From positions 16,126 to 80,125 of the forward strand of contig JBBEBI010000041.1 in NCBI GenBank assembly GCA_040882365.1: a stretch of 64,000 nt of DNA, written 5' to 3'. The position numbers were made by a program, and so were the translations under genes. This document shows positions 1 through 52,728 of this stretch, in pieces (positions within the stretch are counted from its first letter, which is position 1; each line of letters opens with the position of its first letter). This stretch comes from Anaerolineales bacterium (GTDB taxonomy: Bacteria; Chloroflexota; Anaerolineae; Anaerolineales; UBA11579). The notes under the pieces were generated by a model that made no database searches, had not been told where the DNA came from, and worked only from the letters and a program-made list of their open reading frames with translations.

Positions 1-659
1 CACGAAAATTCGTCGTCTTTGAAATTCGAAGCAATCTGACGCAACAACTCAAGGTCCTCGGACGTGTCTACCGTCCAGCGATAGTGACCATAATTGGGGC
101 TGTGCTTGATATGCAAAATGCGGAAGCGATCGGGGTGCTCGTAAAAGAAAGGCATCACATGTTCGCGCTGGTGGGGTTCCTGAGCTTCGCGCCAGGCGAT
201 CTCCAGCGCCGCCATGGTGCAGAATTCGGCATCCAAACCAATGGGGATGGTGCGGTCGCTCGGCAGCCGGTTGGCCGCAAAATCCAGCGGCGGTTGCGCC
301 TCCAGGAAGGTCCGCAGGTTGTCAGCCAACATCTCGGGGTCAATGAAGGGGCAATCCCCGGTGAGACGCACGACAACTTCGGCATCGTATTGGCGCGCAG
401 CGTGCACATAGCGGTCCAGTACATCGTGCAGGTCGCCGCGGCAGCAAGCAAAGCCTTGCTCCTTGCAGAAGGCGGCGATCACGTCATCCTCAGTGGCCAC
501 CGAGGTGGCCACAATGATTTGATGGATGCCAGCCGCCCGGCTGGCGCGGCGCATCACCCAGGCCAATACCGGCTGGCCGCCCAAATGGGCGAGCACCTTG
601 CCCGGCAGGCGGCTGGAAGCCATGCGAGCTTGAATAATGGCAACCACGCGAGGTGCCAT
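1..659 (-). CDS. Cytidylyltransferase, SpsF / CMP-(non)ulosonate synthetase family (partial; 3' end lies beyond the window start)
   Basis: Absent from the ORF track because it has no stop inside the window. Reverse translation from ATG 659-657 gives MAPRVVAIIQARMASSRLPGKVLAHLGGQPVLAWVMRRA...VVRLTGDCPFIDPEM. This shows the ARxxSxRLPGK nucleotide loop and the TGDCP motif of PF02348-type cytidylyltransferases. The listed + ORF 84..803 is its antisense shadow. Confidence 0.75.
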   Translation of the reverse strand, partial: MAPRVVAIIQARMASSRLPGKVLAHLGGQPVLAWVMRRASRAAGIHQIIVATSVATEDDVIAAFCKEQGFACCRGDLHDVLDRYVHAARQYDAEVVVRLTGDCPFIDPEMLADNLRTFLEAQPPLDFAANRLPSDRTIPIGLDAEFCTMAALEIAWREAQEPHQREHVMPFFYEHPDRFRILHIKHSPNYGHYRWTVDTSEDLELLRQIASNFKDDEFS

Positions 660-660
660 G

Positions 661-1716
661 TCAGCCAGCCGCCTCCAAGGCTAAGTCATAAGCCTGGAAA
701 AGTCTTTGCTTGTTTCGGTTCCAGTCCGCACGGGCCTCAGCCACCTGACGGGCTTGGGTGCGCATTTCATTTTGTTGCTTGCCCACCGCGGCATGCAACA
801 TGAAATCAGTAAGAGCCACCTCATCCTTCACGGGAAACCACCATCCCTGTTTGCCCGGCGTCACCCACTCGCGGTTGCCCGGAATATCGGAGACCAGGGC
901 CGGCACCCCGCTGGCCAATGCCTCCATCAGCGATACGGAAGAGCCATCACTTTGCGAAGCGCTGATGTACACATCCGCGGCGCGGTAGTAATTGGACAGG
1001 TCATCCTGTGAAACTTGGCCGGGCATGTGGGCGCGGTCCAGCATACCCGCGCGCTCAAAGACGCGGCTCAGCCTCGACGCCAAGCTGCCATCGCCAGGCA
1101 TCAGCAAACGCAGGGAAGCATCTCTCCGGGCCGCACGTATGAAAGCGCGCCCAATGGTAAGCGGATCGTACAAAGGCTCCCAGGAGCGTACATGCAGGAT
1201 GACAAAATTATTTTGCCAACCAAGTCTGACCCGCAAGTTCCCATTCCCGCCCTTGGGATTGAATTGATTCAAATCGACCCCCCAGGGAAAGATGACAATA
1301 CGATCCGGGTGGACGCCCAGTTCAACGGCAGCATGCCTCACGGTATCGCAATCGCCGATTACGGCATCGGCGCGCTCAAGCGCAAACCGGACGCGGCGGC
1401 GCGTCAAAAAGTTATGGCGCGCTTCCCACAGAATATCAGAACCCCACGACATGAGCACCAGCGGCTGAAAGCCGCTTTTGGCTGCCAGGTAGCCGGGCCC
1501 GGGCAGTGGGCCGGCATGGATCAGATCGGGCTTCACTTCTTCGATCACATCTTTCAACTCTCCGGAAGCCTCTCGCGCTCCTTTTGGAATAGGACGTGTT
1601 TCTGAGGCGCCATGGCTCAGACGCAAAAATGAGGCTTCGTGGCCTGCCTCGGTGATCGCGGACAGGAAACGGTGGTCGTGAGGGGTGTAGCCGCGACTGA
1701 AATACAAGATCTTCAT
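661..1716 (-). CDS. Glycosyltransferase, GT-B fold, GT4 (glycos_transf_1) family
   Basis: 351-aa ORF. The C-terminal half carries the GT4 donor-binding signature YISASQSDGSSVSLMEALASGVPALVSDIPGNREWV. Its stop abuts the start of the downstream cytidylyltransferase gene. Confidence 0.8.
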   Translation of the reverse strand: MKILYFSRGYTPHDHRFLSAITEAGHEASFLRLSHGASETRPIPKGAREASGELKDVIEEVKPDLIHAGPLPGPGYLAAKSGFQPLVLMSWGSDILWEARHNFLTRRRVRFALERADAVIGDCDTVRHAAVELGVHPDRIVIFPWGVDLNQFNPKGGNGNLRVRLGWQNNFVILHVRSWEPLYDPLTIGRAFIRAARRDASLRLLMPGDGSLASRLSRVFERAGMLDRAHMPGQVSQDDLSNYYRAADVYISASQSDGSSVSLMEALASGVPALVSDIPGNREWVTPGKQGWWFPVKDEVALTDFMLHAAVGKQQNEMRTQARQVAEARADWNRNKQRLFQAYDLALEAAG

Positions 1717-1729
1717 TCAAGGAATCGGG

Positions 1730-2794
1730 CTACTTTAGATCCTCATGGCGCAATTCCTTGCCAAAAGGCAGGTCCGCCGCGGCCCTTTTTCCGACGACAT
1801 CGAGGATATCCCAGGCCATCAGCGCCCCCGGGGTCGCCGGGCGCAGCACCTCAATCATGTCCTCAGTAAATGCCTCGCCGGCTTTTATATTGCGCGCGGC
1901 GCGCAGGCAATGTCGCTGGACGATGTAAGTTTCCTTTTCGTTCTCAGCCACAAATTTTTCGGCAGAGCCCAGGGCGCGCTCGAGGATACGAACTTCTTCC
2001 ACCATGTGCGCCCAGTTGTCGGGATTGAGAGCGAACTTGTGATCAGGGCCCTCGCGCCCATTGCTATCCGTAAAATGCCGTTCAATAACGCGCCCGCCCA
2101 GGGCGACGGCGCCCACTACCGGCGCGGCGCTCTGGGTGTGATCCGAGAGGCCCAGGATCACATCTGGCCAGAGGCTGGCATAGGTCTTGAGCACGTTTAG
2201 GTGCAAATGGTCGTAATTGCTTTCGCTGGCTGTGTAGTTGGTATTACACTGCATCAGGACGACCTGCTTATTCACAGGCAAGACCATATCCATGGCTCGT
2301 TTCACATCGTTGATGTCGGAGTCGCCGGTGGCAATCAAGATCGGCTTGCTGAATTGAGCCATGCGCACGATAGCTTGTGGCCATGACATGAGGCTAGAGC
2401 CCGCCTTATAGGCGGGCACGTATGGATCAAGCATGTCGATGGCTTCGTAGTCGTACGGGGATGAGAAGTAATGGATGTCGAATTCGTCGCAAGCATCTTT
2501 TAGTGTGGGCGTCCATTCGAAGGGAATCGAGGCGTCTTCGTACACTTCGAACACGCTCTTTTTCCATTTCGCCTGGTGGGAGAGCTGCCCGCCCAGCGAC
2601 TTAAACCCGTAATCGGAGACGATCTTAGGAGCGCGGAAATTCTGGAACTTGGCGGCATCGGCGCCGGCCTGCTTGGCCAGGCGAATTAAGGCCACAGCGC
2701 GCTTCAGGTCGCCATCGTGGTTAGCGGCGATATCGGCGATGAAGTAGGTGGGATGCCGGGGGCCAACTTTGCGCCCCTGGATCTCAATCTCCAT
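1730..2794 (-). CDS. NeuB-family nonulosonic acid synthase, divergent copy (PseI/LegI/NeuB-like)
   Basis: FIADIAANHDGDLKRAVALIRLAKQAGADAAKFQNF (NeuB TIM-barrel N-terminal motif), LGLSDHT, and a C-terminal SAF-like segment NIKAGEAFTEDMIEVLRP. It differs from the canonical copy at 49533..50579 by an insertion of roughly 40 aa after KFQNF. It also has AGSSLMSWPQ in place of ASGEVTNLPLL. Confidence 0.75.
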   Translation of the reverse strand: MEIEIQGRKVGPRHPTYFIADIAANHDGDLKRAVALIRLAKQAGADAAKFQNFRAPKIVSDYGFKSLGGQLSHQAKWKKSVFEVYEDASIPFEWTPTLKDACDEFDIHYFSSPYDYEAIDMLDPYVPAYKAGSSLMSWPQAIVRMAQFSKPILIATGDSDINDVKRAMDMVLPVNKQVVLMQCNTNYTASESNYDHLHLNVLKTYASLWPDVILGLSDHTQSAAPVVGAVALGGRVIERHFTDSNGREGPDHKFALNPDNWAHMVEEVRILERALGSAEKFVAENEKETYIVQRHCLRAARNIKAGEAFTEDMIEVLRPATPGALMAWDILDVVGKRAAADLPFGKELRHEDLK

Positions 2795-2797
2795 GGC

Positions 2798-3736
2798 TTA
2801 TCCTTTCACCGGCTCAGGCGCGGCCGCCAGATTTTGCAACTTGGCGCGGTAGCCAGATTGGAGCTGTTCGTGTAACCGCTCTATACCCTCAGCGATAGTG
2901 GGCGGCCTGCGTTCAAGTGCCTTCGCCAGCCTGCCGGTCCGCAAGGTCAGGTTAAGGGCGCGCCGCGCAGCGACTTCCACCGCCGAGGTGGTGGTTGGCT
3001 GGACCAGGCCTGCATCTAATCCGAATCGATTGGCAATGGCCACGCCGAACTCATATTTGCTCATGTGATCGGCACTGACGACGTGATAGAGGCCGCGCAA
3101 ATTTTTCTCCAATAGCTGCAGCATGATTACGGCCAGGTCAGTCACCAGCAATGGGCAAAAAGTGCGGTCCGTAAAGCCCAGCACCGCGTTTCCCGCAGTA
3201 AGATTGTTATGGAAAAATTCCGCCAGGCTGTGGCGGCCGCTCACGCTCCAGCCGAAGAAGTTGGGGCGCACGATGAGCACATGGGGATGGGCGGCTTTCA
3301 CTGCCAGCTCGGCCAGCCGCTTGGTGCGGCCATAGACACTGATTGGCACAGGGGCGTCCTCTTCGTTATAGTCGCCCTTGGCGCCATCGAAGACTGCGTC
3401 GGTGGATACCTGAAGAAAACGCAGGCCTCGTTTGGCGCTCTCAGAAGCCAGGCGACCGGGCAACTCCGCATTCAGGCGCTGGGCCAGTTCGGGCTGACGA
3501 TCGCAGGTGTCCAAGTTGGCCAGCGCAGCACAATTGATCACCCAATCGGTCTTAGCCTCATCGAGCACGCGGGAGATGGCGCCAGGCGCCAATAGATCAG
3601 CGTGCATGGTCTCAAAACCGGGATCACGCAATGGCTGCTCGTGCACTACGCCGATGACCTCATGACGTTTGGCAGCCTCAAGGGCGAGGTTGATACCCAA
3701 TAAACCGCTAACCCCGGTGATCAGGATGCGAGTCAC
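2798..3736 (-). CDS. RmlD-like NAD(P)-dependent sugar-nucleotide 4-reductase (SDR)
   Basis: N-terminal Rossmann ILITGVSGLLG, catalytic YGRTK (YxxxK), about 310 aa with RmlD-type layout. 4-nt ATGA-type overlap with the upstream dehydratase gene (3733-3736). Confidence 0.7.
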   Translation of the reverse strand: MTRILITGVSGLLGINLALEAAKRHEVIGVVHEQPLRDPGFETMHADLLAPGAISRVLDEAKTDWVINCAALANLDTCDRQPELAQRLNAELPGRLASESAKRGLRFLQVSTDAVFDGAKGDYNEEDAPVPISVYGRTKRLAELAVKAAHPHVLIVRPNFFGWSVSGRHSLAEFFHNNLTAGNAVLGFTDRTFCPLLVTDLAVIMLQLLEKNLRGLYHVVSADHMSKYEFGVAIANRFGLDAGLVQPTTTSAVEVAARRALNLTLRTGRLAKALERRPPTIAEGIERLHEQLQSGYRAKLQNLAAAPEPVKG

Positions 3737-4752
3737 GCCGACTTGCCTGCCTTAATCTCAGCCTCGATAGGATCGACCATGGCGCGGATCTGCGCCGCAG
3801 TCAGAGTTAGCGGGTTTTCGTTGCTGGCATAATAAAAGCCTTCGGGAAGCGGCTTGCCTTTTTTATCCCAAGAACGCACGAAATATGGCCCCTGAGCCGG
3901 TTGGATGACATACATATCTTCGAGCTCGACCGCGGTGCGGGCTTCATCTTCGGAAATGAGCACCTCATGCAATTTTTCCCCGGGCCGGATGCCGATCACT
4001 TCGAGCGCGGCTTTGGGTGCGATGGCCTTGGCCAGATCCATGATCGAAGTACTCGGCAGCTTGGGCACGAAGACCTCACCACCCTGCATCACCTCGATGC
4101 AACTCAAGACGAAATGCACTCCTTGCTCAAGCGACAACCAGAATCGGGTCATGCGCTCATCGGTGATGTGCAATTTCCCGTTCGAGCGCTGGCGTAAGAA
4201 AATGGGCACCACGCTGCCACGGCTGCCAATAACGTTGCCGTAGCGCACGCAGCTAAACCGAGCCGGCCGATCGCCGGAATAGGCGTTGCTCTGCACGGTG
4301 AGTTTCTCGGCGGCCAGCTTGGTGGCCCCGTACAAGTTGACCGGGCTGACAGCCTTGTCGGTACTGAGCGCCAAGACTTTGCTAACGCCAGTTTCCAGTG
4401 CCCCTTCCACCACGTTGGCGGTCCCAAGTATGTTGGTCTTGATGGCCTCCATGGGGTTGTATTCGCAGGCGGGCACCTGCTTTAGCGCCGCGGCGTGGAT
4501 GACAATGGTCACGCCATCCATGGCGCGCTTGAGGCGCCCCAGGTCGCGCACGTCGCCGATGAAATAGCGCAAATTCGGCTGGTCGAAACCTGCCTCGCGC
4601 ATTTCGTGCTGCTTGAGTTCGTCGCGGCTGAAGACAATCACCTTGGCCGGTTTGTACTCCTCCAACAGAATGCGCGTGCACTCCCTGCCGAAGGAGCCGG
4701 TCCCGCCCGTGATCAACACAACCTGCTTTTTCCAATCCATCGTCGTCTCCAT
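3733..4752 (-). CDS. UDP-N-acetylglucosamine 4,6-dehydratase, PseB/FlaA1/CapD family
   Basis: VVLITGGTGSFG...VFSRDELKQHEM...YGATKLAAEK...RYGNVIGSRGSVVPIF...DERMTRFWLSLEQGVHFV...GGEVFVPKLPS...GIRPGEKLHE. Together these are the characteristic motif string of short PseB/CapD-type dehydratases. Confidence 0.85.
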   Translation of the reverse strand: METTMDWKKQVVLITGGTGSFGRECTRILLEEYKPAKVIVFSRDELKQHEMREAGFDQPNLRYFIGDVRDLGRLKRAMDGVTIVIHAAALKQVPACEYNPMEAIKTNILGTANVVEGALETGVSKVLALSTDKAVSPVNLYGATKLAAEKLTVQSNAYSGDRPARFSCVRYGNVIGSRGSVVPIFLRQRSNGKLHITDERMTRFWLSLEQGVHFVLSCIEVMQGGEVFVPKLPSTSIMDLAKAIAPKAALEVIGIRPGEKLHEVLISEDEARTAVELEDMYVIQPAQGPYFVRSWDKKGKPLPEGFYYASNENPLTLTAAQIRAMVDPIEAEIKAGKSA

Positions 4753-5586
4753 CTATTTGCTGATCACCACCAGAGGATACAGCCCTTTTTCTCCAAAGAA
4801 ACGAGGAAACCACTCCTCCAAGCGATAAAGCAGGCGCAGCCAGACCCGGCCGAGCCATTCCTCGCGGATGAAGAAGCGCAGCACGTTGGTGCTGGCGCTG
4901 CGCCAGACCAGGATCTGGAAATCCATCTTGCCGCGCAATACGTTCTTCAACCAACGCGCGTCCTGCTTGTTCACGAAGGTCCCCTTGCCCAGCTCCAGTT
5001 CTTCAGGCAGCGTGCCATTCACCGGGCCCACACCTTTGCGTCCCTTAATCCAGGCCTTGATGCGATCGAAGAATCTATTCAGGGAGGAATCACCCCAGCC
5101 GTTTACCACCACAGCGCGCCGACCCGGGGTGAGCACGCGCCGCAATTCCATATACGCCTGCACGTGCTGGCTGACCGGCAGATGATGGATGGTATGCAAA
5201 GAAACCACCGCGTCGAACGCATCTGCCACGAAAGGAAGACGGGAAACATCGCTTACAACGTATGAGCCCTGACTGCCGATGCGTTCTCGCGCCGCCTTGA
5301 GCGCGGTAATGGAAACATCCGCGCAGATGCGCTTTTGATAGCCCTTGGAATAATCCAGATATTCCGGATATTGGATGGGCCCCGAGCCAGCGTCCAGAAA
5401 GAGGCGCCCCGTAGGAATTAGATGGCGCCCCACCCGCAGATGGCAGCGATGGATGTATTCCTGGGACACCGGACGCAAATCCTCGTAGCGTGCGTTCTGG
5501 TACAGGCCGTCGGAAACTTCCTTCCAGCCCACTCGGTCGTAGAACTCGCGCACCTGGCGCTTGATCTCGCGTTCGGAGTCGATCAT
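4753..5586 (-). CDS. Class I SAM-dependent methyltransferase
   Basis: Motif I FLDAGSGP, post-I and motif II region AFDAVVSLHTIHHL, then LTPGRRAVVV. The track start is 5601. The ATG at 5586 forms an ATGA overlap with the upstream stop (5583-5586 = tcat on the + strand) and matches the coupling pattern used elsewhere in the locus. Confidence 0.7.
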   Translation of the reverse strand: MIDSEREIKRQVREFYDRVGWKEVSDGLYQNARYEDLRPVSQEYIHRCHLRVGRHLIPTGRLFLDAGSGPIQYPEYLDYSKGYQKRICADVSITALKAARERIGSQGSYVVSDVSRLPFVADAFDAVVSLHTIHHLPVSQHVQAYMELRRVLTPGRRAVVVNGWGDSSLNRFFDRIKAWIKGRKGVGPVNGTLPEELELGKGTFVNKQDARWLKNVLRGKMDFQILVWRSASTNVLRFFIREEWLGRVWLRLLYRLEEWFPRFFGEKGLYPLVVISK

Positions 5587-11811: not shown

Positions 11812-11832
11812 TATCTAAAATTCAGCCGTTGA

Positions 11833-11841
11833 ATTATAACA
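11833..11841 (-). promoter_or_regulatory. Putative extended -10 promoter element (TGTTATAAT) upstream of the regulator gene
   Basis: The minus strand reads ...cgtTGtTATAATtcaacgg..., 21 nt upstream of ATG 11811. The -35 region is poor (TCTCAA). Confidence 0.3.
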
Positions 11842-11861
11842 ACGATTTTATGGTTTTGAGA

Positions 11862-40210: not shown

Positions 40211-40321
40211 TCAGAGCTCAATTTTAGTGAATAAAACAATGTTTATGGAATGAGACGTTTTTTACTCTATCACTTAATAGCCAGATGAAATCTTAGTCAC
40301 TCGCTGGCCTGTATCGTTCAA

Positions 40322-40528
40322 CTAAGGGGTTAAACTCGGCCGACAGTCGCCGAGAGATATAGTCGATGCTGGCCGAATCCATCTCTTCCGTGTATGTTCC
40401 AATTTTTCCTTTGCGCGAGATAACAATACGCGCAACCAAGTTCTTCCCAACTTGGGGTACGAAACGACAAAAACCTTTTCCTCGGGGTTTTTGCTTTCAA
40501 TTTCCAATTGATCGGGTTCAATGCGCAT
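40322..40528 (-). pseudogene. N-terminal remnant of a sulfotransferase gene
   Basis: 68-aa ORF containing VFVVSYPKLGRTWLRVLLSR. This is a degenerate version of the PAPS 5'-phosphosulfate-binding loop (YPKSGTTW). It lies in a 329-bp gap too short for a full sulfotransferase, and the remaining 110 bp are about 30% GC. Confidence 0.45.
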
Positions 40529-40539
40529 GGCAGTATGGG

Positions 40540-41808: not shown

Positions 41809-41824
41809 AGCAGCTTGCCAGATC

Positions 41825-43872: not shown

Positions 43873-43881
43873 GTAATTCCT

Positions 43882-46730: not shown

Positions 46731-46736
46731 CAGAGG

Positions 46737-47447
46737 CTAAGTCCTCACCGGCTGTGCCGCACGGGCGCCAAGGATCTCCTCGGCCCGCTGCCAATCAACC
46801 ATCGTATCCAAGCTCAGCGCCTCTCCGCGAGAGATGATCAGTGGAAGACACTTTTCGCCATATAGGCTCCCCCTTTCCATCAATACATCCCGCCGGCAGG
46901 CATACACGGTGCCTTCACGCGCGTAAGCAGATACCACCTGCTGTCGCCGCGTGATCGCCTTCCCGCCGTCCGTCAAAAAAACGAGAAATCCGTCCTGGAC
47001 CTTCATCGCTTTTTGGGGCGAATACAGATCCGGTATTTCAACCACGCTAACCACCGAATCGCACCCCTTGCTCTCCAGTAATTCCACGGCTTTCCGAACG
47101 CGCCCCCCGCGCCGCAGCGGTGAGGTCGGCTGAAGGAGCACAATAATATCCGCCCGCCATCCTTGGCGTTCCAGCTCTCCCACCGCATGCTGCGCAACGG
47201 CCAGCATCGGGCTGTCATCCGCAGCCAGCTCCGCCGGCCGCAAGAAGGGGATCTCCAATCCCAGTTTGCGTCCCAATTCGGCGATCTCTTGGGAGTCAGT
47301 GCTTAGTACCAATCGATCGATTACTCCAGAAGCATTCGCGGCTTCGAGGGTATACGCGAGCAATGGCTTGCCAGCCAACTCGCGCAGATTCTTATTGGGG
47401 ATGCCCTTGGAGCCGCCCCGCGCCGGAATGATCCCCAGCACGCTCAT
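46737..47447 (-). CDS. neuA: N-acylneuraminate cytidylyltransferase (CMP-sialic acid synthetase)
   Basis: LGIIPARGGSKGIPNKNLRELAGKPLLAYT...LSTDS...FLRPAELAADDSPM...LLQPTSPLR. Confidence 0.85.
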   Translation of the reverse strand: MSVLGIIPARGGSKGIPNKNLRELAGKPLLAYTLEAANASGVIDRLVLSTDSQEIAELGRKLGLEIPFLRPAELAADDSPMLAVAQHAVGELERQGWRADIIVLLQPTSPLRRGGRVRKAVELLESKGCDSVVSVVEIPDLYSPQKAMKVQDGFLVFLTDGGKAITRRQQVVSAYAREGTVYACRRDVLMERGSLYGEKCLPLIISRGEALSLDTMVDWQRAEEILGARAAQPVRT

Positions 47448-48376
47448 AGGGCCATGCCTCGCGGCGCGTTTTGCACAGTGCGGATTTCGCGCAACAAAAG
47501 CTCAACGCTTTCGGGCGACGGCAGATGGCCGGAGTCGGGTGCGATCGAGGCGCACACATAACTGATATGCAGCCGGTCGGCCGCATATCCCTTGCGCAGC
47601 ACGGTGAACCCCTTTTGACGCAGGAATGCTTCTGTGGTCTCTTGCGTCAAATAGTAAGGATGGTCGATCTTGATCACCTCGTTGATGTTCCAGTGGCGCA
47701 GGTAAGCAGCCCTGAGATCGACGATATCAAAGAAGAAGATCCCGCCTTCTGTTAAACATTCCCTCACTTTTGTCAGGGTGACGGAAATGTCTAATAGATG
47801 GTCGATCGTTTGGCACAACAGCAGCAGATCGAATTTCTCAGATCCAAAATCAGTCCCTTCAAAGAGCCCGTGAATGGTGGAGAGCCCACGCGCTTTTGCC
47901 TCACGCAGTTCCTCGGCCGAGGGATCCAGCACAACTCCGGCGTAGCCGAAGCGCTGGGAGAAATGCTGCGCTACCACCCCCGTCGAACCACCGATATCCA
48001 ACAGTCGGCCCCCGGGCCGTCGTCCTAAAAAGGGCGCAGCGAACTCAGCGCGTTCCCTGGCATACTCGCCCTGCTCGCCTTGAATGCTCTTGGCATCGAT
48101 GACCCGCCCGTGATAGGCGCTAACCAGCGGCCGATAGACCCGAGCGTAGAAGTCGCTATAGGCAGTGCCGGTTAGCCGCGGGTTCAGGAATACCAGCCCG
48201 CAGCGGCCACAGGCATAGGCGTTGGCAGTGAACCCGTAGCGGTCGCGGTCACATAACTGCACAAAGTAATTGCCCACACACAGATTGCACAGCTCTACCC
48301 ATTCTTTGGGTTGGTCGGCATAACGGTAGGCCAGTGCCTGGATTCGGTCAGTACGATCGGCTTGAATGGTGACCAT
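47444..48376 (-). CDS. Class I SAM-dependent methyltransferase with N-terminal zinc ribbon
   Basis: CNLCVGNYF...CGRCGLVFLNPR, motif I RLLDIGGSTGVVA, then FDLLLLCQTIDHL. ATGA overlap with neuA. Paralogue of 17510..18439. Confidence 0.8.
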   Translation of the reverse strand: MVTIQADRTDRIQALAYRYADQPKEWVELCNLCVGNYFVQLCDRDRYGFTANAYACGRCGLVFLNPRLTGTAYSDFYARVYRPLVSAYHGRVIDAKSIQGEQGEYARERAEFAAPFLGRRPGGRLLDIGGSTGVVAQHFSQRFGYAGVVLDPSAEELREAKARGLSTIHGLFEGTDFGSEKFDLLLLCQTIDHLLDISVTLTKVRECLTEGGIFFFDIVDLRAAYLRHWNINEVIKIDHPYYLTQETTEAFLRQKGFTVLRKGYAADRLHISYVCASIAPDSGHLPSPESVELLLREIRTVQNAPRGMAL

Positions 48377-48378
48377 AT

Positions 48379-49533
48379 CTAATACGCAATCTGTTTGGCG
48401 ATGCTGAGCTCAACCTTCGCCAACAAATCGGCGATGCGCTTGCCGGCGCCGCCATCACCGTAAATCGATTCGGACGGGTAGCGGCCATTCGCCAAGTGTC
48501 GTTTGAGTGCGCCTTCGATTTTCGCCGCATCATAAGGTACATCCGCCACATTCTTACCGCGCTCGCGGCCCGCTTGCCGGCCGCCAATGTTCACCGCGGG
48601 CACTCCCAGGAAGGAACATTCGCGAATGCCAACGCTGGAGTTCCCCACGATGGCTTTGCTGTTGTAGATCAGGCGCAGGAAGTCTTCCGGCTCCATGTTC
48701 TTAAAGTAATGGAACTTAGCCCCCCGCCCCTTCTCGCGGAAGATGCGAATGCCGCGCGAGATGCCATCGGAACCCGCATCCACATTGGGCCAGAACCACA
48801 AAGCGGGCAGGTCAAAAGCTTCTACGGCTTCCAACGTTTCCGTGATCTGAGCGCGCGATCCGGCAATCTGCGTCGTGACCGGATGCTGCATCACCACCAC
48901 ATAGCCATCCGAGAGCTCGCTGATGGCTCCCACGCCGCCGTATTTCACGAACGGATCGAAGTCCAATTCAGGTTGCTTTAGCACCTCGGCTGCCAAGTCA
49001 ATCGACGGACATCCGGTGACGAAAACAGATTGGGGAGCCTCGCCCATACGGATCAGCCGCTCAGCCGCGCCTTTGGTGGCTGCGAAATGCAGATTGGCCA
49101 GCTTGCTTACCGCGTGGCGCACCTTCTCGTCAATGGAGCCGGTCACTTCGCCGCCCTGCACGTGGGCCAGCGGAATATTCATGTAGGATGCTGCCACCGC
49201 CGTGGCCAGGGTTTCGTAGCGATCCGCTACGGTGACCACCACATCAGGCTGCAGGTTATCGAAGATCGTAGCCAATTCCATGATGCCGAGGCCCGTGGAT
49301 TTGGCGGAAGTGATTAGATTCTCGCCTTCCAGCACAATGAAAACCCGCGCCGCAATCTTGAAACCATCCTGCTCGATGTATTCCACGATGCTGCCATAGC
49401 GATCCAACAGCGCCGAGGCGGCCACAATGAGTTGGAGTTCCAGATCGCCGTGCTGTTGCATGGCGCGCAGCGCCGTTTTGATCCGCGCGTAGCTAGGCCG
49501 TGCCGTCACTACCAGTCCGACTTTGCGCGTCAT
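48379..49533 (-). CDS. neuC: UDP-N-acetylglucosamine 2-epimerase (hydrolysing)
   Basis: VVTARPSYARIK...VVTVADRYETLATAVAASYMNIPLAHVQGGEVTGSIDEKVRHAVSKLANLHF is the GGE-x-TG-x-ID...RHA motif of NeuC-type epimerases. Confidence 0.85.
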   Translation of the reverse strand: MTRKVGLVVTARPSYARIKTALRAMQQHGDLELQLIVAASALLDRYGSIVEYIEQDGFKIAARVFIVLEGENLITSAKSTGLGIMELATIFDNLQPDVVVTVADRYETLATAVAASYMNIPLAHVQGGEVTGSIDEKVRHAVSKLANLHFAATKGAAERLIRMGEAPQSVFVTGCPSIDLAAEVLKQPELDFDPFVKYGGVGAISELSDGYVVVMQHPVTTQIAGSRAQITETLEAVEAFDLPALWFWPNVDAGSDGISRGIRIFREKGRGAKFHYFKNMEPEDFLRLIYNSKAIVGNSSVGIRECSFLGVPAVNIGGRQAGRERGKNVADVPYDAAKIEGALKRHLANGRYPSESIYGDGGAGKRIADLLAKVELSIAKQIAY

Positions 49534-50579
49534 CAGGCCAGATCCTCTTCGGCTAGTAACTGGTCGCGCTTTAGGTTACGCGCCAACTTGCGGCCGATCA
49601 GCTCACCCAAACGTTCAGTGGCAATGCCGGTCCCGGGCTTTTTAGTCGTCAAATCCTCTTTGGCAAGCACGGTTCCCGCCGGCAGATCGCGCCTGGCGAC
49701 TACGCTATGGAAGAACAAGAGCCGCAATTCATTTCTTTCTGCCGCGGCCTTATCTTTATCTACAGGAGATTCTAAAGCGGTTTCGATGAACCGTACGCCC
49801 TCAACCAATTGTCCCAATTCAGTTGGCGTGAGCGAGGCGGGCACATCCGGGCCGAACATGTCTCGGCTCAAGGTCACGTGCACCTCTATTATGTTGGCTC
49901 CCAAGCTGGCTGCGGCCAAGCCGGCGTAAATCTTCCCGGAGTGATCTGAAAGCCCCACCGGAACGTCATAACGCTCCCGCATCTCATGCATAACATTCAA
50001 CCCAAGTTCCTCTGGGGGGCACGGGTAGGCAGTAGTGCACTGAAAAATAGCTAGTGGCGCCTTCGGTTTAATTGCGGCAACCGCCTTATCCAATTCCTCC
50101 CAGGAACTCATCCCCGCCGATAACAACACCGGCCTTCTCGTGGCAAGTATCTTTTCCAACAAAGGGAGGTTGGTTACTTCGCCGGAGGCCACTTTCCACG
50201 CGGGGACCCCCACGCGCTCCAGCAGCTCCACCGCTTCGATCGAGAAAGGCGAGCTGAGGAAGAGCAGCTTGCCCTCATCGGCGTGTTGCGCCAGGCCGCG
50301 CCATTGCTCTTCGCTGAATTCCATACGCCTCCAATATTCCAAGCGCGTGCCATCTTGTTTGCTAAAGGATACGCGGAATTTTTCCTCCAGCGTGCTCTCG
50401 GCTTCGGCTATGTGCGTCTGGAATTTCACCGCGTCTGCTCCGGCCGCGGCGATGGCGTCGATGAAGGCATGTGCCATTCCCAAGCTGCCCTCGTGGGCCT
50501 GCGCCACCTCGCCGATGATCAGGGCTGGGTGACCCGACCCGATCCTGCGGTTGCCAATCGCGATCTCAGTTTGCGTCAC
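49533..50579 (-). CDS. neuB: N-acetylneuraminate (sialic acid) synthase, canonical
   Basis: LIIGEVAQAHEGSLGMAHAFIDAIAAAGADAVKFQTH...KVASGEVTNLPLLEKI...PVLLSAGMSS...GLSDHSG. C-terminal SAF domain (...LPAGTVLAKEDL...KKPGTGI). Confidence 0.9.
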   Translation of the reverse strand: MTQTEIAIGNRRIGSGHPALIIGEVAQAHEGSLGMAHAFIDAIAAAGADAVKFQTHIAEAESTLEEKFRVSFSKQDGTRLEYWRRMEFSEEQWRGLAQHADEGKLLFLSSPFSIEAVELLERVGVPAWKVASGEVTNLPLLEKILATRRPVLLSAGMSSWEELDKAVAAIKPKAPLAIFQCTTAYPCPPEELGLNVMHEMRERYDVPVGLSDHSGKIYAGLAAASLGANIIEVHVTLSRDMFGPDVPASLTPTELGQLVEGVRFIETALESPVDKDKAAAERNELRLLFFHSVVARRDLPAGTVLAKEDLTTKKPGTGIATERLGELIGRKLARNLKRDQLLAEEDLA

Positions 50580-51250
50580 GCTTTGGACTCTTTCACAAAG
50601 TAAGCCGTGGGACTCTTTGCCCAGGGGAAGGCGAGTAGCCTGACTTGCCTGCCCGTGAGGAATTCGTCAACTGCATCGGTTTCTCCGGCGCCGGCAACCG
50701 CATATTCATCCAATGCCACCACCCCGCCAGCGACCACGCAAGGGTACAGATGGGTCAAAGCTGTCATGGTGGGCTCGTATAAGACGAAATCCAGGTTGAG
50801 CAAGGCGGCTCGAAAACCTGGATTTTCTTTGATGTACTTCGGCATGCTTTCTTCAGCCTTGCCATGCACCAATTCAATGCGATGACTCAAGCCCTGTTGC
50901 TCGGCTATGCCTTGGATGGTTGCCATGGCCACATCGCTCCCGTCCTTGATCTGAACCTGCTTAAAATCCCTGGCTGTCTTACGGTCATGACCCTTGGCCC
51001 CGTCTTGAGGATATCCCTCAAATGTATCGAAGCCGATTACCTTGCGGCGCGACTGGGGATTAAAGATCTCGATCAGCTTGGCCCACAGTAGCAAACCGGC
51101 GCCCTTCAACACGCCGCCCTCGACAATATCGCCGGGCTTATCCGCGATAAGCTTGAACAATTCATAGCGAGCCAGCAGCTTTGTGAATCGATCCAGGTCT
51201 CCCCACAGGGAAAACTGGTTATACAGGTCCCAGCGCGCTTGTTCTTCCAT
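50576..51250 (-). CDS. TylF/macrocin-type SAM-dependent O-methyltransferase
   Basis: GDIVEGGVLKGAGLLLWAKL...VIGFDTFEGYP...LLNLDFVLYEPTMTALTHLYPCVVAGGVVALDEY follows the PF05711 motif order. ATGA overlap with neuB. Confidence 0.7.
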   Translation of the reverse strand: MEEQARWDLYNQFSLWGDLDRFTKLLARYELFKLIADKPGDIVEGGVLKGAGLLLWAKLIEIFNPQSRRKVIGFDTFEGYPQDGAKGHDRKTARDFKQVQIKDGSDVAMATIQGIAEQQGLSHRIELVHGKAEESMPKYIKENPGFRAALLNLDFVLYEPTMTALTHLYPCVVAGGVVALDEYAVAGAGETDAVDEFLTGRQVRLLAFPWAKSPTAYFVKESKA

Positions 51251-51253
51251 GGC

Positions 51254-51712
51254 CTAAGGGTTATTTTCCTTCAATTCGTAGCCGCGGCCATTGCGTTTGA
51301 CCGTCCACTTGCCCGGTTTGTCCTCTACTCGAATCCCCTCCTCAATACAGGTAAGGCGAAGGATGTCCATCACCTCATCGCCTCCCTCCAGGTAAACCTG
51401 CCGAACCCCGCTATGTTGCATCAGAATAGCCATATCCTTAGCCTGCTGCCGCAGGTCGCGGTACACCTGCAAGGAATCCCGCAGGTATTGCAGCGCATTC
51501 CGCGTGAAGGCTGACATTCCTTCCGGGGTTAGGTTGTAACGCAACCGGGTGCGGTCCATTCGCGTCGCCTTCAAATAGCCGCGGTTGATCAAGCGTTTGA
51601 TATACCAGTTCACGCTACCCACGGCGATATCCAAATGTGTAGCTAACCCCGCTTGAGTGACGCTTTCATCTGCAGAAATAGCCTCCAAAAGGCGGTATTC
51701 ACGTTCCTTCAT
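51254..51712 (-). CDS. Winged-helix regulator, EPS-associated MarR-like, paralogue of 11311..11811
   Basis: LLEAISADESVTQAGLATHLDIAVGSVNWYIKRLINRGYLKATRMDRTRLRYNLTPEGMSAFTR, plus a shared C-terminal LTC(I/L)E(E/Q)G segment. About 40% identity to the other copy by eye. Confidence 0.6.
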   Translation of the reverse strand: MKEREYRLLEAISADESVTQAGLATHLDIAVGSVNWYIKRLINRGYLKATRMDRTRLRYNLTPEGMSAFTRNALQYLRDSLQVYRDLRQQAKDMAILMQHSGVRQVYLEGGDEVMDILRLTCIEEGIRVEDKPGKWTVKRNGRGYELKENNP

Positions 51713-51731
51713 ATCAGCATTCAGGAAATGA

Positions 51732-51760
51732 ATTCTGACACATTAAAAACGGAATGTCAA
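51732..51760 (-). promoter_or_regulatory. Putative sigma-70-type promoter for the regulator/neu sub-operon
   Basis: Minus strand: TTGACA (51760-51755), 17-nt spacer, CAGAAT (51737-51732). It lies 20 nt upstream of ATG 51712. Confidence 0.5.
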
Positions 51761-51795
51761 TGGACATCGTCCGGGCCTTCGAATATGGGGGAAAG

Positions 51796-52620
51796 CTATT
51801 TTTGGGCTTCCAGGAAGATCCCGACCTCGGGTTCACGAGATTCCAACAATTGCGTATCCCGCAACACCGGGCACCGGCTTTGGCCATACCCGGATCGATA
51901 CACCTGGGTAAAGCCATCTGTGCCTACCATGGCACTCAACTTGGCTGCATTAAACCAATTGATGTGATTCTCAGGATGGCGTCTCTGGCTCAGCAATGAA
52001 TATTTCGCCGTGCAGTAGTTCAAAGCGTCTTCAAGGCTGGGTTCTGCCAGAACCCTGCGCAGCTCCGCGTCTGATACCTTCTTGGCGGCCCCATCAGCGT
52101 GCAATTCGCTGGCGCTGCTGGCGAAACTCCACAGGAATTTCTGCTCGAATGACGCCTGGTTGATGTTGGCGAGGAAATCCTTGTTCGGAAAAGTGTTCAG
52201 ATCGTGTTTCGGTCGATAAAAAAAGGCCTCGTCTTTCAGCTCGTAGGCCGCGTAATAAATATCGATGTCGGGCACCACCAACCGCAAAAAGCCATCCTTG
52301 GCTAGGGCACGGTAAGCTTCAGCCAGGAAGTGCTGCACCATTTCATCAGTAATATGCTCTAGCGTGTACCGCGAGAAAATTACTTTCGCCTTTTTATCTT
52401 CAACCGGAAAGCGAGTCCCGGCCATTAACTCCCAGTGAATACCAATATTCTCACTGCCATAATGCTCGCTGGGGTGATTGACCCTCGTCCACGCGGGATG
52501 GCTGAATTGTGCTTCCGCACCCACATTGTAGAAACGCCTTTCGCGCAAGGCTTCCTCGCCAAACCAGCGCGATAGGCTTCTAGGTTTTTGCTCCCCAATT
52601 TGGCTATTGGAGGCGGGCAT
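51796..52620 (-). CDS. Methyltransferase-fold protein with degenerate SAM motif I (possibly frameshifted at its 5' end)
   Basis: SRYTLEHITDEMVQHFLAEAYRALAKDGFLRLVVPD is the Methyltransf_11-type motif II/III region. The expected motif I reads FYNVGAEAQFSHPAWTRVN (no GxG). See the finding on 51796..52721. Confidence 0.5.
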   Translation of the reverse strand: MPASNSQIGEQKPRSLSRWFGEEALRERRFYNVGAEAQFSHPAWTRVNHPSEHYGSENIGIHWELMAGTRFPVEDKKAKVIFSRYTLEHITDEMVQHFLAEAYRALAKDGFLRLVVPDIDIYYAAYELKDEAFFYRPKHDLNTFPNKDFLANINQASFEQKFLWSFASSASELHADGAAKKVSDAELRRVLAEPSLEDALNYCTAKYSLLSQRRHPENHINWFNAAKLSAMVGTDGFTQVYRSGYGQSRCPVLRDTQLLESREPEVGIFLEAQK

Positions 52621-52728
52621 GGCAAAGGAGCTGAAACCCTTGGCCTCCTAAGCGGGACAATGTCATAGCCAAATGGATTGAAGAAGGCTTTACGAATCAG
52701 ATCTTTGAACACCTTAATCATTAAGGGA

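Follow-up and report, generated by a model that had tools for sequence, protein, structure and literature searches.

A putative modular envelope-glycan island on one strand of an Anaerolineales (Chloroflexota) genome

Does the run of closely packed, same-strand genes that occupies most of this 64,000-nucleotide stretch of DNA (hereafter the window; C41:16126–80125) form a single operon for one heteroglycan, or is it composed of several separately expressed modules? A first-pass annotation had described one glycan "factory" read from very long transcription units. We favour, with moderate confidence, a different reading, in which the locus would be a modular envelope-glycan island consisting of a core export cassette, a unit for decoration by lipid-linked sugars and GT-C enzymes, and a variable sialic-acid-type head. 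All of the genes and gaps described below for positions 1 to 52,721 lie on the minus strand.

Extent and Conservation of the Gene Run

Six-frame ORF tiling places all 48 ORFs from base 1 to 52,620/52,721 on the minus strand, with a strand change at 52.7–52.8 kb, and five further genes left of the window extend the run to 53 genes and 58,049 bp. The single-strand run of 52 kb reported earlier was thus, if anything, understated, whereas its count of 47 genes is replaced by 48. By a crude tiling of the whole 2.2-Mb MAG, the runner-up same-strand run has 22 genes (mean 2.75) and about 5e-8 runs of at least 53 genes are expected. The coding fraction of 1–52721 is 97.9%, compared with 90.8% genome-wide, which agrees with the earlier statement that there is almost no intergenic DNA. 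Contigs C41 and C4 abut, as indicated by a 15-nt end overlap and by synteny in five congeners; with C4 included, the glycan region comprises ~90 kb and ~79 genes and makes up 4% of the assembly, and all but two of these genes share the same strand. The analysed stretch covers about the upstream two-thirds of this ~90-kb island.

Comparative genomics of the locus, one of the checks named in the first-pass annotation, reveals a colinear gene order in five congeners (G004, G022, G019, G021, and G010; 41–93% amino acid identity) and in the closed genome G011, except for one five-gene block that sits 475 kb away in the latter. An assembly artefact as the source of the island is therefore ruled out.

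The gaps of >30 bp listed earlier were reproduced (11812–11861, 17443–17509, 21491–21546, 29290–29323, 51713–51795, and 40211–40539), and that at 33595–33638 is real only if the remnant ORF at 33639–34179 is counted as a gene. This ORF was rejected as a true gene: it is a deletion scar that joins the N-terminal 103 residues of a GT2 (241 aa in full) to the C-terminal 67 residues of another protein, of 204 aa, and both parent genes are intact in a congener. All nine of the 4-nt start/stop overlaps are present, of which only six are ATGA (5583, 18436, 20006, 38466, 42925, and 47444), those at 3733, 9315, and 50576 being GTGA rather than ATGA as first noted; the 1-nt overlaps noted at 44844 and 49533 were confirmed, and both read TGATG. 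The head methyltransferase at 51796–52721 occupies two frames here and one 331-aa ORF in a congener, due to either a frameshift or a sequencing error in the MAG. Because two genes are broken in the MAG, this genome may be unable to yield the complete product.

Promoter-Like Boxes and Proposed Segmentation

Conservation within the gaps was judged from a 6-species alignment. The gap at 11812–11861, a likely promoter and operator, contains an invariant TATAAT within the inverted repeat AATTCAAC..TTGAAT. Only three TATAAT occur on the minus strand in 52.8 kb, this one (at 11838) among them, and two of the three fall in gaps (0.06 expected). The gap at 17443–17509 carries a conserved GTTATCATT box followed by a conserved, terminator-like GC hairpin with a T-rich tail, and that at 21491–21546 an invariant GGTATAAT followed by the conserved hairpin GCGCCTC-N4-GAGGCG. 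GG(C/T)ATAAT is kept in five of the six species at 29290–29323, and 51713–51795 holds a promoter-like site with conserved TTGACATT-N17-TGTCAGAAT. Hence -10-like boxes are kept across species in gaps of 34–83 bp, one of which also has a -35-like box; a generic promoter/terminator scan found no enrichment over shuffled sequences. Two paralogous HTH_24/MarR-like regulators (40% identity) are encoded at 11311–11811, at the head of the cassette (PF13412, 51.9 bits), and at 51254–51712.

The conserved gap boxes, together with the terminator-like hairpin at 17.45 kb, the two regulators, two exporters, the relocated five-gene block, and the head that is lower in GC and differs between species, lead us to read the island as a series of eight or more co-directional, apparently separately promoted units rather than as one operon. 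Neither the single heteroglycan "factory" nor the very long transcription units with fixed stoichiometry are supported in the form first proposed, although units of up to 17 genes are still long. Read-through transcripts could still span several units, as the co-orientation and tight packing of the genes would allow.

A Predicted Chain-Building Block

The block at 26217–40210 begins with a GT4 (26217–27368) and two GT2 enzymes (27387–28337 and 28339–29289), followed by another GT4 (29324–30502; PF00534, 97 bits). A candidate TylM1/DesVI-like sugar N,N-dimethyltransferase (30506–31273), with full-length matches to 3pfg (1.6e-15) and 3bxo (1.3e-12), adjoins a DegT/PseC/LegC-family sugar aminotransferase (31280–32395; PF01041, 377.7 bits; LegC/PseC models below cut-off), a pairing that upholds the proposed N-methylated amino sugar. 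They are succeeded by a 141-aa protein (32379–32804) that is 82–92% identical in congeners and has no match in Pfam or PDB, a SAM methyltransferase (32821–33594) whose only ortholog among the five congeners is in G004, and a region of lower GC (34194–40210), also chain-building, with a GT2-like protein of 364 aa, a GT2, three GT4s, and a SAM methyltransferase. The GT2/GT4 enzymes would build the chain in the cytoplasm, with a TylM1-type dimethylamino-sugar branch.

The Conserved Export Cassette

As judged from its sequences, the cassette from 11811 to −5428 is the order-wide conserved, predicted "cap-then-export" Wzm/Wzt core of the island, and it is colinear in a Ca. Villigracilis affinis MAG at 35–71% identity. 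Next to its regulator are two SDR enzymes of 6-deoxyhexose type, namely an SDR sugar-nucleotide epimerase/dehydratase (10284–11321; PF01370 144 bits, PF16363 98 bits) and a GDP-L-fucose-synthase-like SDR of the 6-deoxyhexose 3,5-epimerase/4-reductase type (9315–10280; PF01370 191 bits; NF047922 309.8 bits, below the cut-off of 500), the latter in keeping with the fucose-type 6-deoxyhexose suggested earlier. The exporter comprises a Wzm ABC-2 permease (8464–9318; PF01061 79 bits and hydropathy peaks) and a Wzt ABC ATPase (7174–8457; PF00005 74 bits) with a C-terminal carbohydrate-binding domain (PF14524 Wzt_C, 41.7 bits, above the cut-off of 30.4).

The adjoining gene, present in 21 of 22 congeners, encodes a KpsC/WbbB-like GT-B enzyme of 529 aa (5583–7172; PF05159 28 bits) with >4,400 unnamed homologues, which is a candidate cap transferase using a CMP-ulosonate. 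Its AF2 model (pLDDT 91) has its top TM scores with the beta-Kdo transferases KpsC and WbbB, and its RxHPG motif is invariant; an HP motif is common to beta-Kdo transferases and CMP-sialic-acid transferases (PMC10148158). The protein could instead be a sugar-nucleotide hydrolase or epimerase, since its lowest Foldseek E-values are with UDP-GlcNAc 2-epimerases and none of its TM scores exceeds 0.5.

Beyond this candidate transferase are a SAM methyltransferase (4753–5586; PF08241 54.7 bits), which overlaps its neighbour by ATGA when started from the ATG at 5586 (alternative TTG at 5601), and a PseB-type inverting UDP-GlcNAc 4,6-dehydratase (3733–4752; TIGR03589 465.9 bits, above the cut-off of 407.75), whose homologues at 68–87% identity are all from Anaerolineales/Chloroflexota and occur throughout Anaerolineales. 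Coupled to it by GTGA is an RmlD-like 4-ketoreductase (2798–3736; PF04321 191 bits; TIGR01214 169 bits, below cut-off), followed by a NeuB-family nonulosonate synthase with a SAF domain (1730–2794; PF03102 205 bits), of ambiguous type (NeuB 240 and PseI 228 bits, both under cut-off), a GT4 (661–1716; PF00534 78.6 bits; 57–79% conserved in congeners), and a cytidylyltransferase of the CMP-ulosonate synthetase type (1–659, the whole gene of 252 aa reaching window position −99; PF02348 CTP_transf_3 122.7 bits; weak KdsB/PseF NCBIfam matches under cut-off). This module has PseB and no recognisable PseC, PseH, or PseG, and we infer a non-canonical route from PseB through the RmlD-like reductase and NeuB-type synthase to the cytidylyltransferase.

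In the proposed scheme, whose enzymatic steps, cap, carrier, and final acceptor are all predictions, the chain would be assembled on a lipid in the cytoplasm, terminated by the KpsC/WbbB-like enzyme with an acidic nine-carbon sugar that may be methylated, and exported after recognition of this cap by the Wzt tail. [quoted passage not shown]

A Proposed Outer-Face Decoration Unit

The unit at 11862–26227 encodes a polytopic, PMT_2-like GT-C of 517 aa (11862–13415; PF13231 26.9 bits, above the cut-off of 26.1; ~11 TM segments) and an 860-aa membrane protein whose C-terminal domain is rich in beta structure (13422–16004). The latter has no sequence match in Pfam or PDB, and PF13231 is present in its distant homologues; the confident Foldseek matches of its AF2 model (pLDDT 89) are all GT-C enzymes, and the model indicates that it has a GT-C fold, with distant matches (TM 0.27–0.30). 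A paralogue of 877 aa (21547–24180; 35% identity over 705 aa; hhalign probability 100%) has a weak PMT_2 match (2e-4). The GT-C outer-face enzymes postulated earlier are thus recovered, and the GT-C pair occurs in 18 of 22 congeners. A 690-aa polytopic protein (24155–26227; ~14 TM segments) has no Pfam match and no profile link to the other membrane proteins; its gene adjoins a GT-C also in Villigracilis and Longilinea MAGs.

Between these lie a FAD/NAD(P)-binding amine-oxidase-like oxidoreductase (16021–17442; PF01593, PF13450; PRK07208 263 bits, below cut-off), two SAM methyltransferases (17510–18439, PF13489 99.5 bits; and the small 19380–20009, PF13489 45 bits), a GT2 of the polyprenyl-phosphate sugar synthase type with two C-terminal TM helices (18436–19458, likely start ATG 19377; PF00535 60 bits; match to Dol-P-Man synthase 5mlz, 5e-8), and a B12-binding (class B) radical SAM enzyme (20006–21490; PF04055 79 bits) whose top NCBIfam matches, under cut-off, are B12-rSAM methyltransferases. 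The GT2 would load a sugar onto polyprenyl phosphate, the radical SAM enzyme, methyltransferases, and oxidoreductase may tailor it, and the GT-C enzymes would carry out its transfer outside the membrane. In total, nine SAM methyltransferases and the one B12 radical SAM enzyme accord with the extensive methylation proposed for the locus.

The Species-Variable Head

The 329-bp gap at 40211–40539, which marks the core/variable boundary, retains a 68-aa remnant ORF with a sulfotransferase-like N-terminus (SYPKLGRTWL). The head beyond it (40540–52721), whose end varies between species and whose GC is lower, reads as a species-variable segment in which a probable NeuC/NeuB/NeuA operon of the sialic-acid type is accompanied by WecB and by a second exporter, of MsbA type. 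It comprises a divergent GT4-like protein (422 aa) and a WecB-type UDP-GlcNAc 2-epimerase (40540–42928), two ORFs of 315 and 320 aa (42925–44844), a fused type-IV ABC exporter resembling the half-transporters Sav1866/MsbA (44844–46730), and, at 46737–51250, a NeuA-type cytidylyltransferase, a methyltransferase, a NeuC-type epimerase, a NeuB-type synthase (NeuB model 324 bits, PseI 225 bits), and a TylF-type O-methyltransferase; this last block is retained in only two of the five congeners (G004 and G022). The WecB- and NeuC-type 2-epimerases support ManNAc chemistry. The two nonulosonate routes proposed are matched by two NeuB-family synthases and two cytidylyltransferases in the window, and a third such synthase is encoded just outside, downstream of it.

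Support for sulfation is weak within the stretch. The 315- and 320-aa ORFs, possibly very divergent sulfotransferases, have no such support in Pfam, PDB, or hhalign profiles; among the 120 homologues listed for the 320-aa protein, only 3 carry PF13469, and the motifs LGPYRNLT..L and PIRNPLD..S are conserved. The strong evidence lies outside the stretch, in genes for a PAPS synthase and for five sulfotransferases with Pfam support.

Product and Significance

Downstream of the window are also a Maf-like protein, a PMT-like GT-C, a Wzy_C ligase-like protein, and two lipoprotein proteases with Thr/Pro-rich linkers. No priming phosphoglycosyltransferase was found in the island, and no LpxC (lipid A), flagellin, or SLH-domain protein in the host assembly; elsewhere it encodes three Bac_transf primers, one MraY/WecA-family gene, and five LCP genes. 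Glycopolymers would be attached to peptidoglycan, for which the LCP genes are candidates, and/or to proteins. The Pfam and NCBIfam matches support a surface-glycan locus of unusually diverse chemistry. Within Anaerolineales (Chloroflexota), the island is conserved across a genus that has not been cultured, and its likely product there is at least one polyanionic, methylated, sulfated, and nonulosonate-bearing glycopolymer.

Organization of the same-strand gene run

Six-frame tiling of the window from base 1 to 52,721 with ORFs of at least 90 aa places 48 of 48 ORFs on the minus strand, in agreement with the single-strand run that the first-pass annotation had described here, and the strand switch at the right end of the run lies at 52.7–52.8 kb. 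The run extends by five genes leftward on the contig beyond the window and thus comprises 53 co-directional genes over 58,049 bp; the second-longest same-strand run in the genome contains 22 genes, and about 5e-8 runs of this length are expected at the genome's rate of strand switching. The genes are closely packed, with 45 of the 52 junctions being 30 nt or shorter and 20 overlapping, and the near-absence of intergenic DNA that had been remarked upon is borne out by a coding fraction of 97.9%, compared with 90.8% genome-wide by the same crude tiling. Reported gaps of 50, 67, 56, 34, and 83 bp and a 329-bp gap were all reproduced, and another reported at 33595–33638 exists only if a remnant ORF is counted as a gene. 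The nine junctions reported as ATGA overlaps are all real 4-nt overlaps, although three of them (at 3733, 9315, and 50576) read GTGA, and both reported 1-nt overlaps are TGATG.

Two gene calls of the first-pass annotation do collapse, viz. those at 33639–34179 and 51796–52721. The former is a deletion scar in which a GT2 gene, cut off after its 5' part, runs into the 3' end of another gene. Codons 1–103 correspond to a 241-aa GT2 of the congener G004; the final 67, read in a different frame, correspond to the end of a distinct 204-aa protein that G004 encodes about 0.85 kb beyond the GT2, and about 1.6 kb of the G004 sequence is absent here. The latter encodes the methyltransferase that heads the run; it is spread over two frames here, whereas G004 has one uninterrupted 331-aa ORF; the split is either a true frameshift or a sequencing error in the metagenome-assembled genome (MAG). 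Plus-strand GC skew stays below zero over nearly all of window 1–64000, even at plus-strand genes, and hence the run may be co-oriented with replication. AT skew is strongly positive at 12–16 and 22–26 kb, which are occupied by membrane-protein genes.

Extent of the island and its flanks

In total, the glycan island spans some 89.5 kb, or 4% of the assembly, and comprises about 79 genes, which, with two exceptions, share one strand. To the left of the window, contig C41 encodes, in this order and among others, a sulfotransferase, two plus-strand PMT_2-like membrane proteins with a mutual identity of 51%, an ATP-sulfurylase/APS-kinase fusion, an SDR, a cytidylyltransferase-HAD fusion, a third NeuB-family synthase, and a second Capsule_synth-like protein. 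The tandem PMT_2-like paralogues (L001:7477–10706 in a stretch of C41), each with roughly 8–10 predicted TM segments, are the only opposite-strand genes of the island; they are kept in five congeners, but no counterpart was seen in the stretch fetched from the closed relative genome G011.

The ends of C41 and of contig C4 overlap by 15 nt, and the C4 genes come directly next in five congeners. They encode, on the same strand, an aaRS-class-II-like protein, GNAT and Antibiotic_NAT-like acyltransferases, a DUF4910 protein, two sulfotransferases, a GT2, a fourth cytidylyltransferase, a 2-hydroxyacid dehydrogenase, an SDR, a Maf-like PF01973 protein, a PMT/PMT_2 GT-C protein, a GT2-sulfotransferase fusion, another GT2, a 2-TM protein that is weakly Wzz-like, a Wzy_C ligase-like protein, two paralogous InhA-like lipoprotein proteases with Thr/Pro-rich linkers, and a further sulfotransferase. 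The island is terminated by same-strand pantothenate/CoA genes (panB, panE, panC, a type III pantothenate kinase, an ATP-grasp protein, and coaBC; L039:1088–6616, C4:20088–25616). To the right of the run, window 52804–62917 carries on the plus strand genes for a periplasmic-binding/FecCD/ABC iron-type importer, a response regulator, GlmU, a CNNM/CorC transporter, a cytidine deaminase, and a metallophosphoesterase, and also a stand-alone sulfotransferase (61041–61922) adjoining a DUF4349 protein.

Host and conservation of the island

The source MAG (2.21 Mb, 67 contigs, 88% complete) contains no 16S gene, and homologues of its PseB protein at 68–87% identity all come from Anaerolineales/Chloroflexota MAGs, including those of Ca. 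Villigracilis, Bellilinea, Longilinea, Brevefilum, and Anaerolinea thermolimosa. An archaeal source, which the HTH_24 regulators had suggested, was rejected on account of these homologues. No LpxC, flagellin, or SLH domain was found in this 88% complete MAG; a flagellin glycosylation island and an SLH/S-layer-anchored polymer were each ruled out as explanations, as neither a flagellin nor an SLH domain was found in it. Outside the island, the MAG encodes five LCP wall ligases, three Bac_transf priming enzymes, and one MraY/WecA-family protein.

Every island protein was compared by tblastn with 80–120-kb stretches of five congeners. This comparison, which the first-pass annotation had called for, recovered one colinear block in all five, from the C4 part to window 40210, and within the window the island proteins share 41–93% identity with their counterparts; the sugar-nucleotide enzymes are the best conserved and the glycosyltransferases and GT-C proteins the least. 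The head of the run (40540–52620) is complete only in two of the five congeners, G004 and G022, and for its NeuC, TylF-type methyltransferase, and head methyltransferase no counterpart is present in the fetched stretches of G019, G021, and G010. It coincides with the lower-GC part of the run (0.48–0.52 vs. 0.55–0.60), and the 329-bp gap at the boundary of core and head contains a 68-aa sulfotransferase-like remnant. In the closed genome G011, the island is colinear except for a five-gene block (window 16021–24180, encoding an 877-aa GT-C protein, a radical-SAM enzyme, a GT2, a methyltransferase, and a FAD oxidoreductase) that sits 475 kb away.

Among the 22 species genomes of the genus, the gene for a 529-aa protein discussed below is present in 21 and the GT-C pair in 18. 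Conservation also reaches another genus, in that a Ca. Villigracilis affinis MAG preserves the order of a 14-gene cassette that extends from the regulator at 11811 to the GT2 at window −1975, at 38–71% identity, with homologues of the GT-C proteins and of a 690-aa protein (24155–26227) nearby.

These results bear upon the suggestion that the long run is a binning or assembly artefact, a chimera of glycan loci from several organisms. The MAG is incomplete and in 67 contigs, GC falls from 0.55–0.60 to 0.48–0.52 at 34–46 kb, and two genes are disrupted, all of which might be expected of a chimera; however, the identical order recurs in six other species genomes, one of them closed, at 41–93% protein identity, and the lower-GC head is itself syntenic in G004 and G022. 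An artefact is thus extremely improbable, and an assembly chimera is ruled out by synteny.

The core cassette and a candidate capping enzyme

The core cassette, which runs leftward from window 11811 on the minus strand, encodes an HTH_24 regulator, an SDR, an Fcl-like SDR, Wzm, Wzt, the 529-aa protein, a methyltransferase, PseB, an RmlD-like reductase, a NeuB-family synthase, a GT4, and a cytidylyltransferase. Wzm (8464–9318) matches PF01061 with 79 bits and the adjacent Wzt ATPase (7174–8457) matches PF00005 with 74 bits; residues 281–393 of Wzt form a C-terminal carbohydrate-binding domain (PF14524 Wzt_C, 41.7 bits, above the cut-off of 30.4). PseB, an inverting 4,6-dehydratase, scores 465.9 bits against TIGR03589, above the equivalog cut-off of 407.75. 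No match to the aminotransferase PseC, the acetyltransferase PseH, or the hydrolase PseG of the canonical pseudaminic acid pathway was found in the cassette, where the RmlD-like reductase comes after PseB, and the route to the nonulosonate is therefore non-canonical; the single DegT gene, 27 kb from PseB, scores below the PseC and LegC cut-offs. If amination does not take place, PseB, the RmlD-like reductase, the NeuB-type synthase, and the cytidylyltransferase would be predicted to yield a 7-hydroxy, 9-deoxy product.

The 529-aa protein (5583–7172) belongs to a family with more than 4,400 unnamed homologues, in which an RxHPG motif is invariant. Its match to PF05159 is weak, and its AF2 model (pLDDT 91) has a GT-B fold for which the top TM scores (0.39–0.50) are to the beta-Kdo transferases KpsC and WbbB and the lowest E-values to UDP-GlcNAc 2-epimerases. 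The retaining beta-Kdo transferases of families GT99 and GT107 (WbbB, KpsC, and KpsS) have a modified GT-B fold with a reduced N-terminal domain, a helical insert, catalytic Asp and Glu residues, and an HP motif, the last of which is present in the 529-aa protein. The HP motif is common to beta-Kdo transferases and CMP-sialic-acid transferases (PMC10148158). [quoted passage not shown] From this precedent of stopping and reading a chain, and the likeness of the 529-aa protein to WbbB, we propose a similar step here, in which the 529-aa enzyme would add a nine-carbon acid as a chain cap, and the Wzt tail would read the cap, leading to export.

Nonulosonate, amino-sugar, and sulfation genes

All three NeuB-family genes of the MAG lie inside the island. 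The protein encoded at 49533 is NeuB-type (324 bits, below the NeuB equivalog cut-off of 399.65, vs. 225 for PseI), and the segment 46737–50579 to which it belongs yields Epimerase_2, NeuB, and CTP_transf_3 Pfam matches of 244.7, 240.5, and 89 bits, respectively. This segment is a candidate for a sialic acid (NeuC-NeuB-NeuA) route, in which the epimerase may be of either the hydrolysing or the non-hydrolysing kind. The exporter encoded at 44844 is a generic half-transporter of the Sav1866/MsbA type. An N-methylated amino sugar, as had been proposed, gains support from the methyltransferase at 30506, which is a full-length match to TylM1/DesVI and is adjoined by a DegT aminotransferase gene. 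No match to RmlA, RmlB, or RmlC was found in the island, where only RmlD-like and Fcl-like reductases are encoded.

The sulfation that had been read from the sequence stands at the level of the locus, since an ATP-sulfurylase/APS-kinase fusion for PAPS supply and five genes with Sulfotransfer_1/3 domains lie outside the run in the window; however, the 315-aa and 320-aa ORFs within the stretch at 42925–44844 fail the Pfam, PDB, and hhalign comparisons. Against the real sulfotransferases of the island, their hhalign probability is below 4%, and their sulfotransferase link consists of transitive hints. PDB sequence searches returned nothing useful for the 529-aa, 860-aa, 141-aa, 315-aa, and 320-aa proteins, nor did a PDB search with a 32-sequence profile of the 320-aa family.

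The proposed decoration unit and possible sites of attachment

The GT2 encoded at 18436 matches the Dol-P-Man synthase 5mlz (5e-8) and has two C-terminal TM helices; two methyltransferases, a B12-type radical-SAM enzyme, and a FAD oxidoreductase are encoded on either side of it. The 517-aa protein (11862–13415) matches PMT_2 just above the cut-off. For 13422–16004, the public gene call has only 712 aa, and homologues of 840–870 aa favor the start that gives an 860-aa protein. This protein has no Pfam match and no PDB sequence match; every high-probability fold match of its AF2 model (pLDDT 89) is to a GT-C protein (viz. AglB, STT3, PglB, ALG3, ArnT, AftA, PimE, and Pmt, the top ones being oligosaccharyltransferases), at TM scores of about 0.3, and its distant homologues carry the annotation GT39/PF13231. 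The 877-aa protein (21547–24180) is its paralogue. When the membrane-protein families were compared by hhalign, with shallow alignments, significance was reached by the 860/877 pair alone; the 690-aa protein, which has 14 TM segments, showed no link. The 517-aa, 860-aa, and 877-aa proteins belong to the GT-C glycosyltransferases and are predicted to use lipid-phosphate donors.

Two lipoproteins of 55% identity are encoded directly downstream of the Wzy_C gene (L039:8031–12175, C4:27031–31175), each with a lipobox, a Thr/Pro/Ala-rich linker, a HEFQH zinc-protease motif, and an InhA-like MAM domain, and they are possible targets of glycosylation. The Maf-like gene (L040:4578–5390, C4:37578–38390), for which the PF01973 match was obtained on a 77%-identical ortholog in G010, lies in a genome where flagellin was not found, and its target would therefore have to differ.

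The island might accordingly serve mainly general protein O-glycosylation, in which glycans would be moved from lipid carriers by a Wzy_C-family ligase and/or PMT-like GT-C enzymes onto Thr/Pro-rich surface proteins or lipoproteins and not onto the wall, a reading that partly overlaps the explanation preferred here. The downstream part of the island does encode a Wzy_C protein and a PMT/PMT_2 GT-C protein, adjoined by the two lipoproteins with their lipobox, T/P/A-rich linker, and HEXXH protease domain; a Maf-like protein is present though flagellin was not found, and oligosaccharyltransferases head the fold matches of the 860-aa protein. These matches are, however, weak (TM about 0.3) and include the lipid- or glycan-directed ArnT, AftA, and PimE; Wzy_C proteins also act as polymerases or as ligases for non-protein acceptors, and five LCP wall ligases are encoded. 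We regard protein O-glycosylation as the main function, and the Wzy_C or PMT-like enzymes as its transfer step, as rather doubtful; the products may be attached to peptidoglycan, to proteins, or to both, the neighboring Wzy_C and PMT-like enzymes and Thr/Pro-rich lipoproteins leaving room for a protein route.

Transcription units

In a generic scan for sigma-70 promoters and terminators, counts were no higher than in shuffled sequences, although its two best minus-strand promoter matches fall in the two gaps of the head. Information came from aligning the gaps across species, each taken from the stop codon that precedes it; six species were compared, or three at the head gap. The gap at 11812, upstream of the HTH regulator, contains an invariant TATAAT within a conserved inverted repeat (AATTCAAC..TTGAATT; window 11826–11850), which is likely an autoregulatory operator. 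In the gap at 21491, before the radical-SAM gene, an invariant GGTATAAT is directly followed in six species by a hairpin (GCGCCTC-N4-GAGGCG) and TTCTT (21498–21535), which could be a 5'-terminal stabilizing stem or an attenuator. The gap at 29290 has G(C/T)ATAAT in five of six species, that at 51713 has TTGACATT-N17-TGTCAGAAT in the three-species alignment, and that at 17443 has a TTATCAT box followed by a conserved GC hairpin with a T-rich tail. TATAAT occurs three times on this strand in 52.8 kb, two of them in gaps, where 0.06 would be expected. The conserved boxes and hairpin suggest that the run is made of several units, most likely at least eight, with predicted sizes of 1, 11, 7, 5, 5, 4, 3, and 17 genes.

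This arrangement bears directly on the first-pass reading of the whole run as one factory, in which one or two very long coupled operons would fix enzyme ratios for a single heteroglycan. Such a reading draws on the 53 co-directional genes with their short junctions (45 of 52 at most 30 nt, 20 overlaps), the coding density of 97.9%, the gene order kept in five congeners, and the lack of a terminator excess in the generic scan. We consider it unlikely, in view of the conserved promoter-like boxes in gaps of 34–83 bp and the terminator-like hairpin at 17.45 kb, the two regulators, the two exporters of different classes, the three nonulosonate synthases of different types, the five-gene block 475 kb distant in G011, and a head found in only two of five congeners; stop/start overlaps, moreover, indicate coupling and not stoichiometry. 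The island appears best read as a modular accretion around an old cap-and-export cassette rather than as a single fixed-ratio factory.

Comparison with known systems

The closest working analogues of the island are the capped Wzm/Wzt O-polysaccharide pathways and the bipartite wall-polysaccharide loci of Gram-positive cocci, and as it has no lipid A acceptor and no rhamnose genes, it belongs to neither class. In the capped ABC systems, the terminator is the beta-Kdo added by WbbB (K. pneumoniae O12 and R. terrigena) or the methyl-phosphate cap added by WbdD (Escherichia coli O9a). The island shares with them Wzm and a Wzt that carries a Wzt_C domain; next in line, immediately, come a KpsC/WbbB-like GT-B protein with an HP motif, a methyltransferase, and a route of CMP-ulosonate supply, and its gene order is compatible with the logic that a cap stops growth and licenses export. 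It differs from them in that its host apparently has no LPS (LpxC was not found in the 88% complete MAG) and no WaaL or lipid A acceptor, so that the acceptor of the island's Wzy_C protein cannot be lipid A-core; in that the candidate cap would be a nine-carbon NeuB-type acid and not Kdo; and in that the 529-aa enzyme is a separate protein of low structural similarity (TM score of 0.5 or below).

The coccal loci (viz. cwps of Lactococcus lactis, epa of Enterococcus faecalis, and streptococcal rgp/gac) combine an ABC-exported conserved backbone, a variable second chain, GT2/GT-C decoration on the outside, and a Wzz-like helper, with LCP ligases encoded elsewhere (PMC9574508). The island likewise has conserved and species- or strain-variable parts (the core in five of five congeners, the head in two of five), and it is predicted to share ABC export of a backbone, a second lipid-linked chain with its own exporter, and decoration by a polyprenyl-P-sugar GT2 and GT-C enzymes; a Wzz-like 2-TM protein is encoded in it, and LCP genes lie elsewhere. 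Unlike the rhamnose-rich coccal loci, it lacks rmlABC and rhamnosyltransferase genes for a rhamnan backbone, is about three times larger, belongs to a different phylum, and goes beyond them with three routes to nonulosonates, sulfation from PAPS, a radical-SAM enzyme, and some ten methyltransferases.

The flagellin glycosylation island of Campylobacter jejuni, which has about 50 genes, maf genes among them, and both a Pse and a Leg route, is similar in being a large region with several nonulosonate routes, modifying enzymes, and a Maf-family PF01973 protein; in contrast to it, no flagellin gene was found in the MAG, the Pse route is non-canonical, and Wzm/Wzt, GT-C enzymes, and many polymer-type GT2 and GT4 proteins are present. 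In mycobacterial arabinogalactan and LAM assembly, a lipid-linked chain undergoes Wzm/Wzt-type export, after which GT-C enzymes use polyprenyl-P-sugar donors; a GT2 makes the lipid-P-sugar, and a FAD oxidoreductase tailors the sugar while it is lipid-bound. The island has in common with this logic a cytoplasmic chain, ABC export, a tailored lipid-P-sugar, and several large GT-C proteins, but the sugars differ and no sequence relation was seen beyond the fold class; no Emb or Aft orthologue was identified in the island, AftA being a weak fold match only.

Significance for the Anaerolineales

Chloroflexota have multilayered envelopes without LPS or outer-membrane assembly genes, and the composition of the outer layer is open (PMC7332563, PMC13319060). 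Literature searches for nonulosonic acids in Anaerolineae/Chloroflexi or for envelope pseudaminic acid returned essentially nothing relevant, and no paper found in the literature searched ties nonulosonic acids to the Anaerolineales' own glycan genes. The island is conserved in the genus and occupies about 4% of a 2.2-Mb genome, and its combination of a putative cap-reading exporter, three routes to nine-carbon acids, sulfation, heavy methylation, and several GT-C enzymes marks it as a concrete candidate, at the genetic level, for this layer. We tentatively suggest, as a reading that may well prove wrong, that it encodes the outer envelope layer of the Anaerolineales, a wall- or protein-anchored, sulfated, methylated, and nonulosonate-capped heteropolymer that would replace LPS or teichoic acids and whose length would be set by the Wzt-read cap. 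The 529-aa family, with its more than 4,400 unnamed environmental homologues, and the 860-aa GT-C family provide marker handles for this group, which is abundant in sludge and sediments. If the suggestion is true, the surface of an entire lineage, uncultured and very abundant, would be determined by one conserved locus that makes up 4% of the genome, and the variable head of this locus would be a hotspot of diversification, e.g., as a phage receptor.
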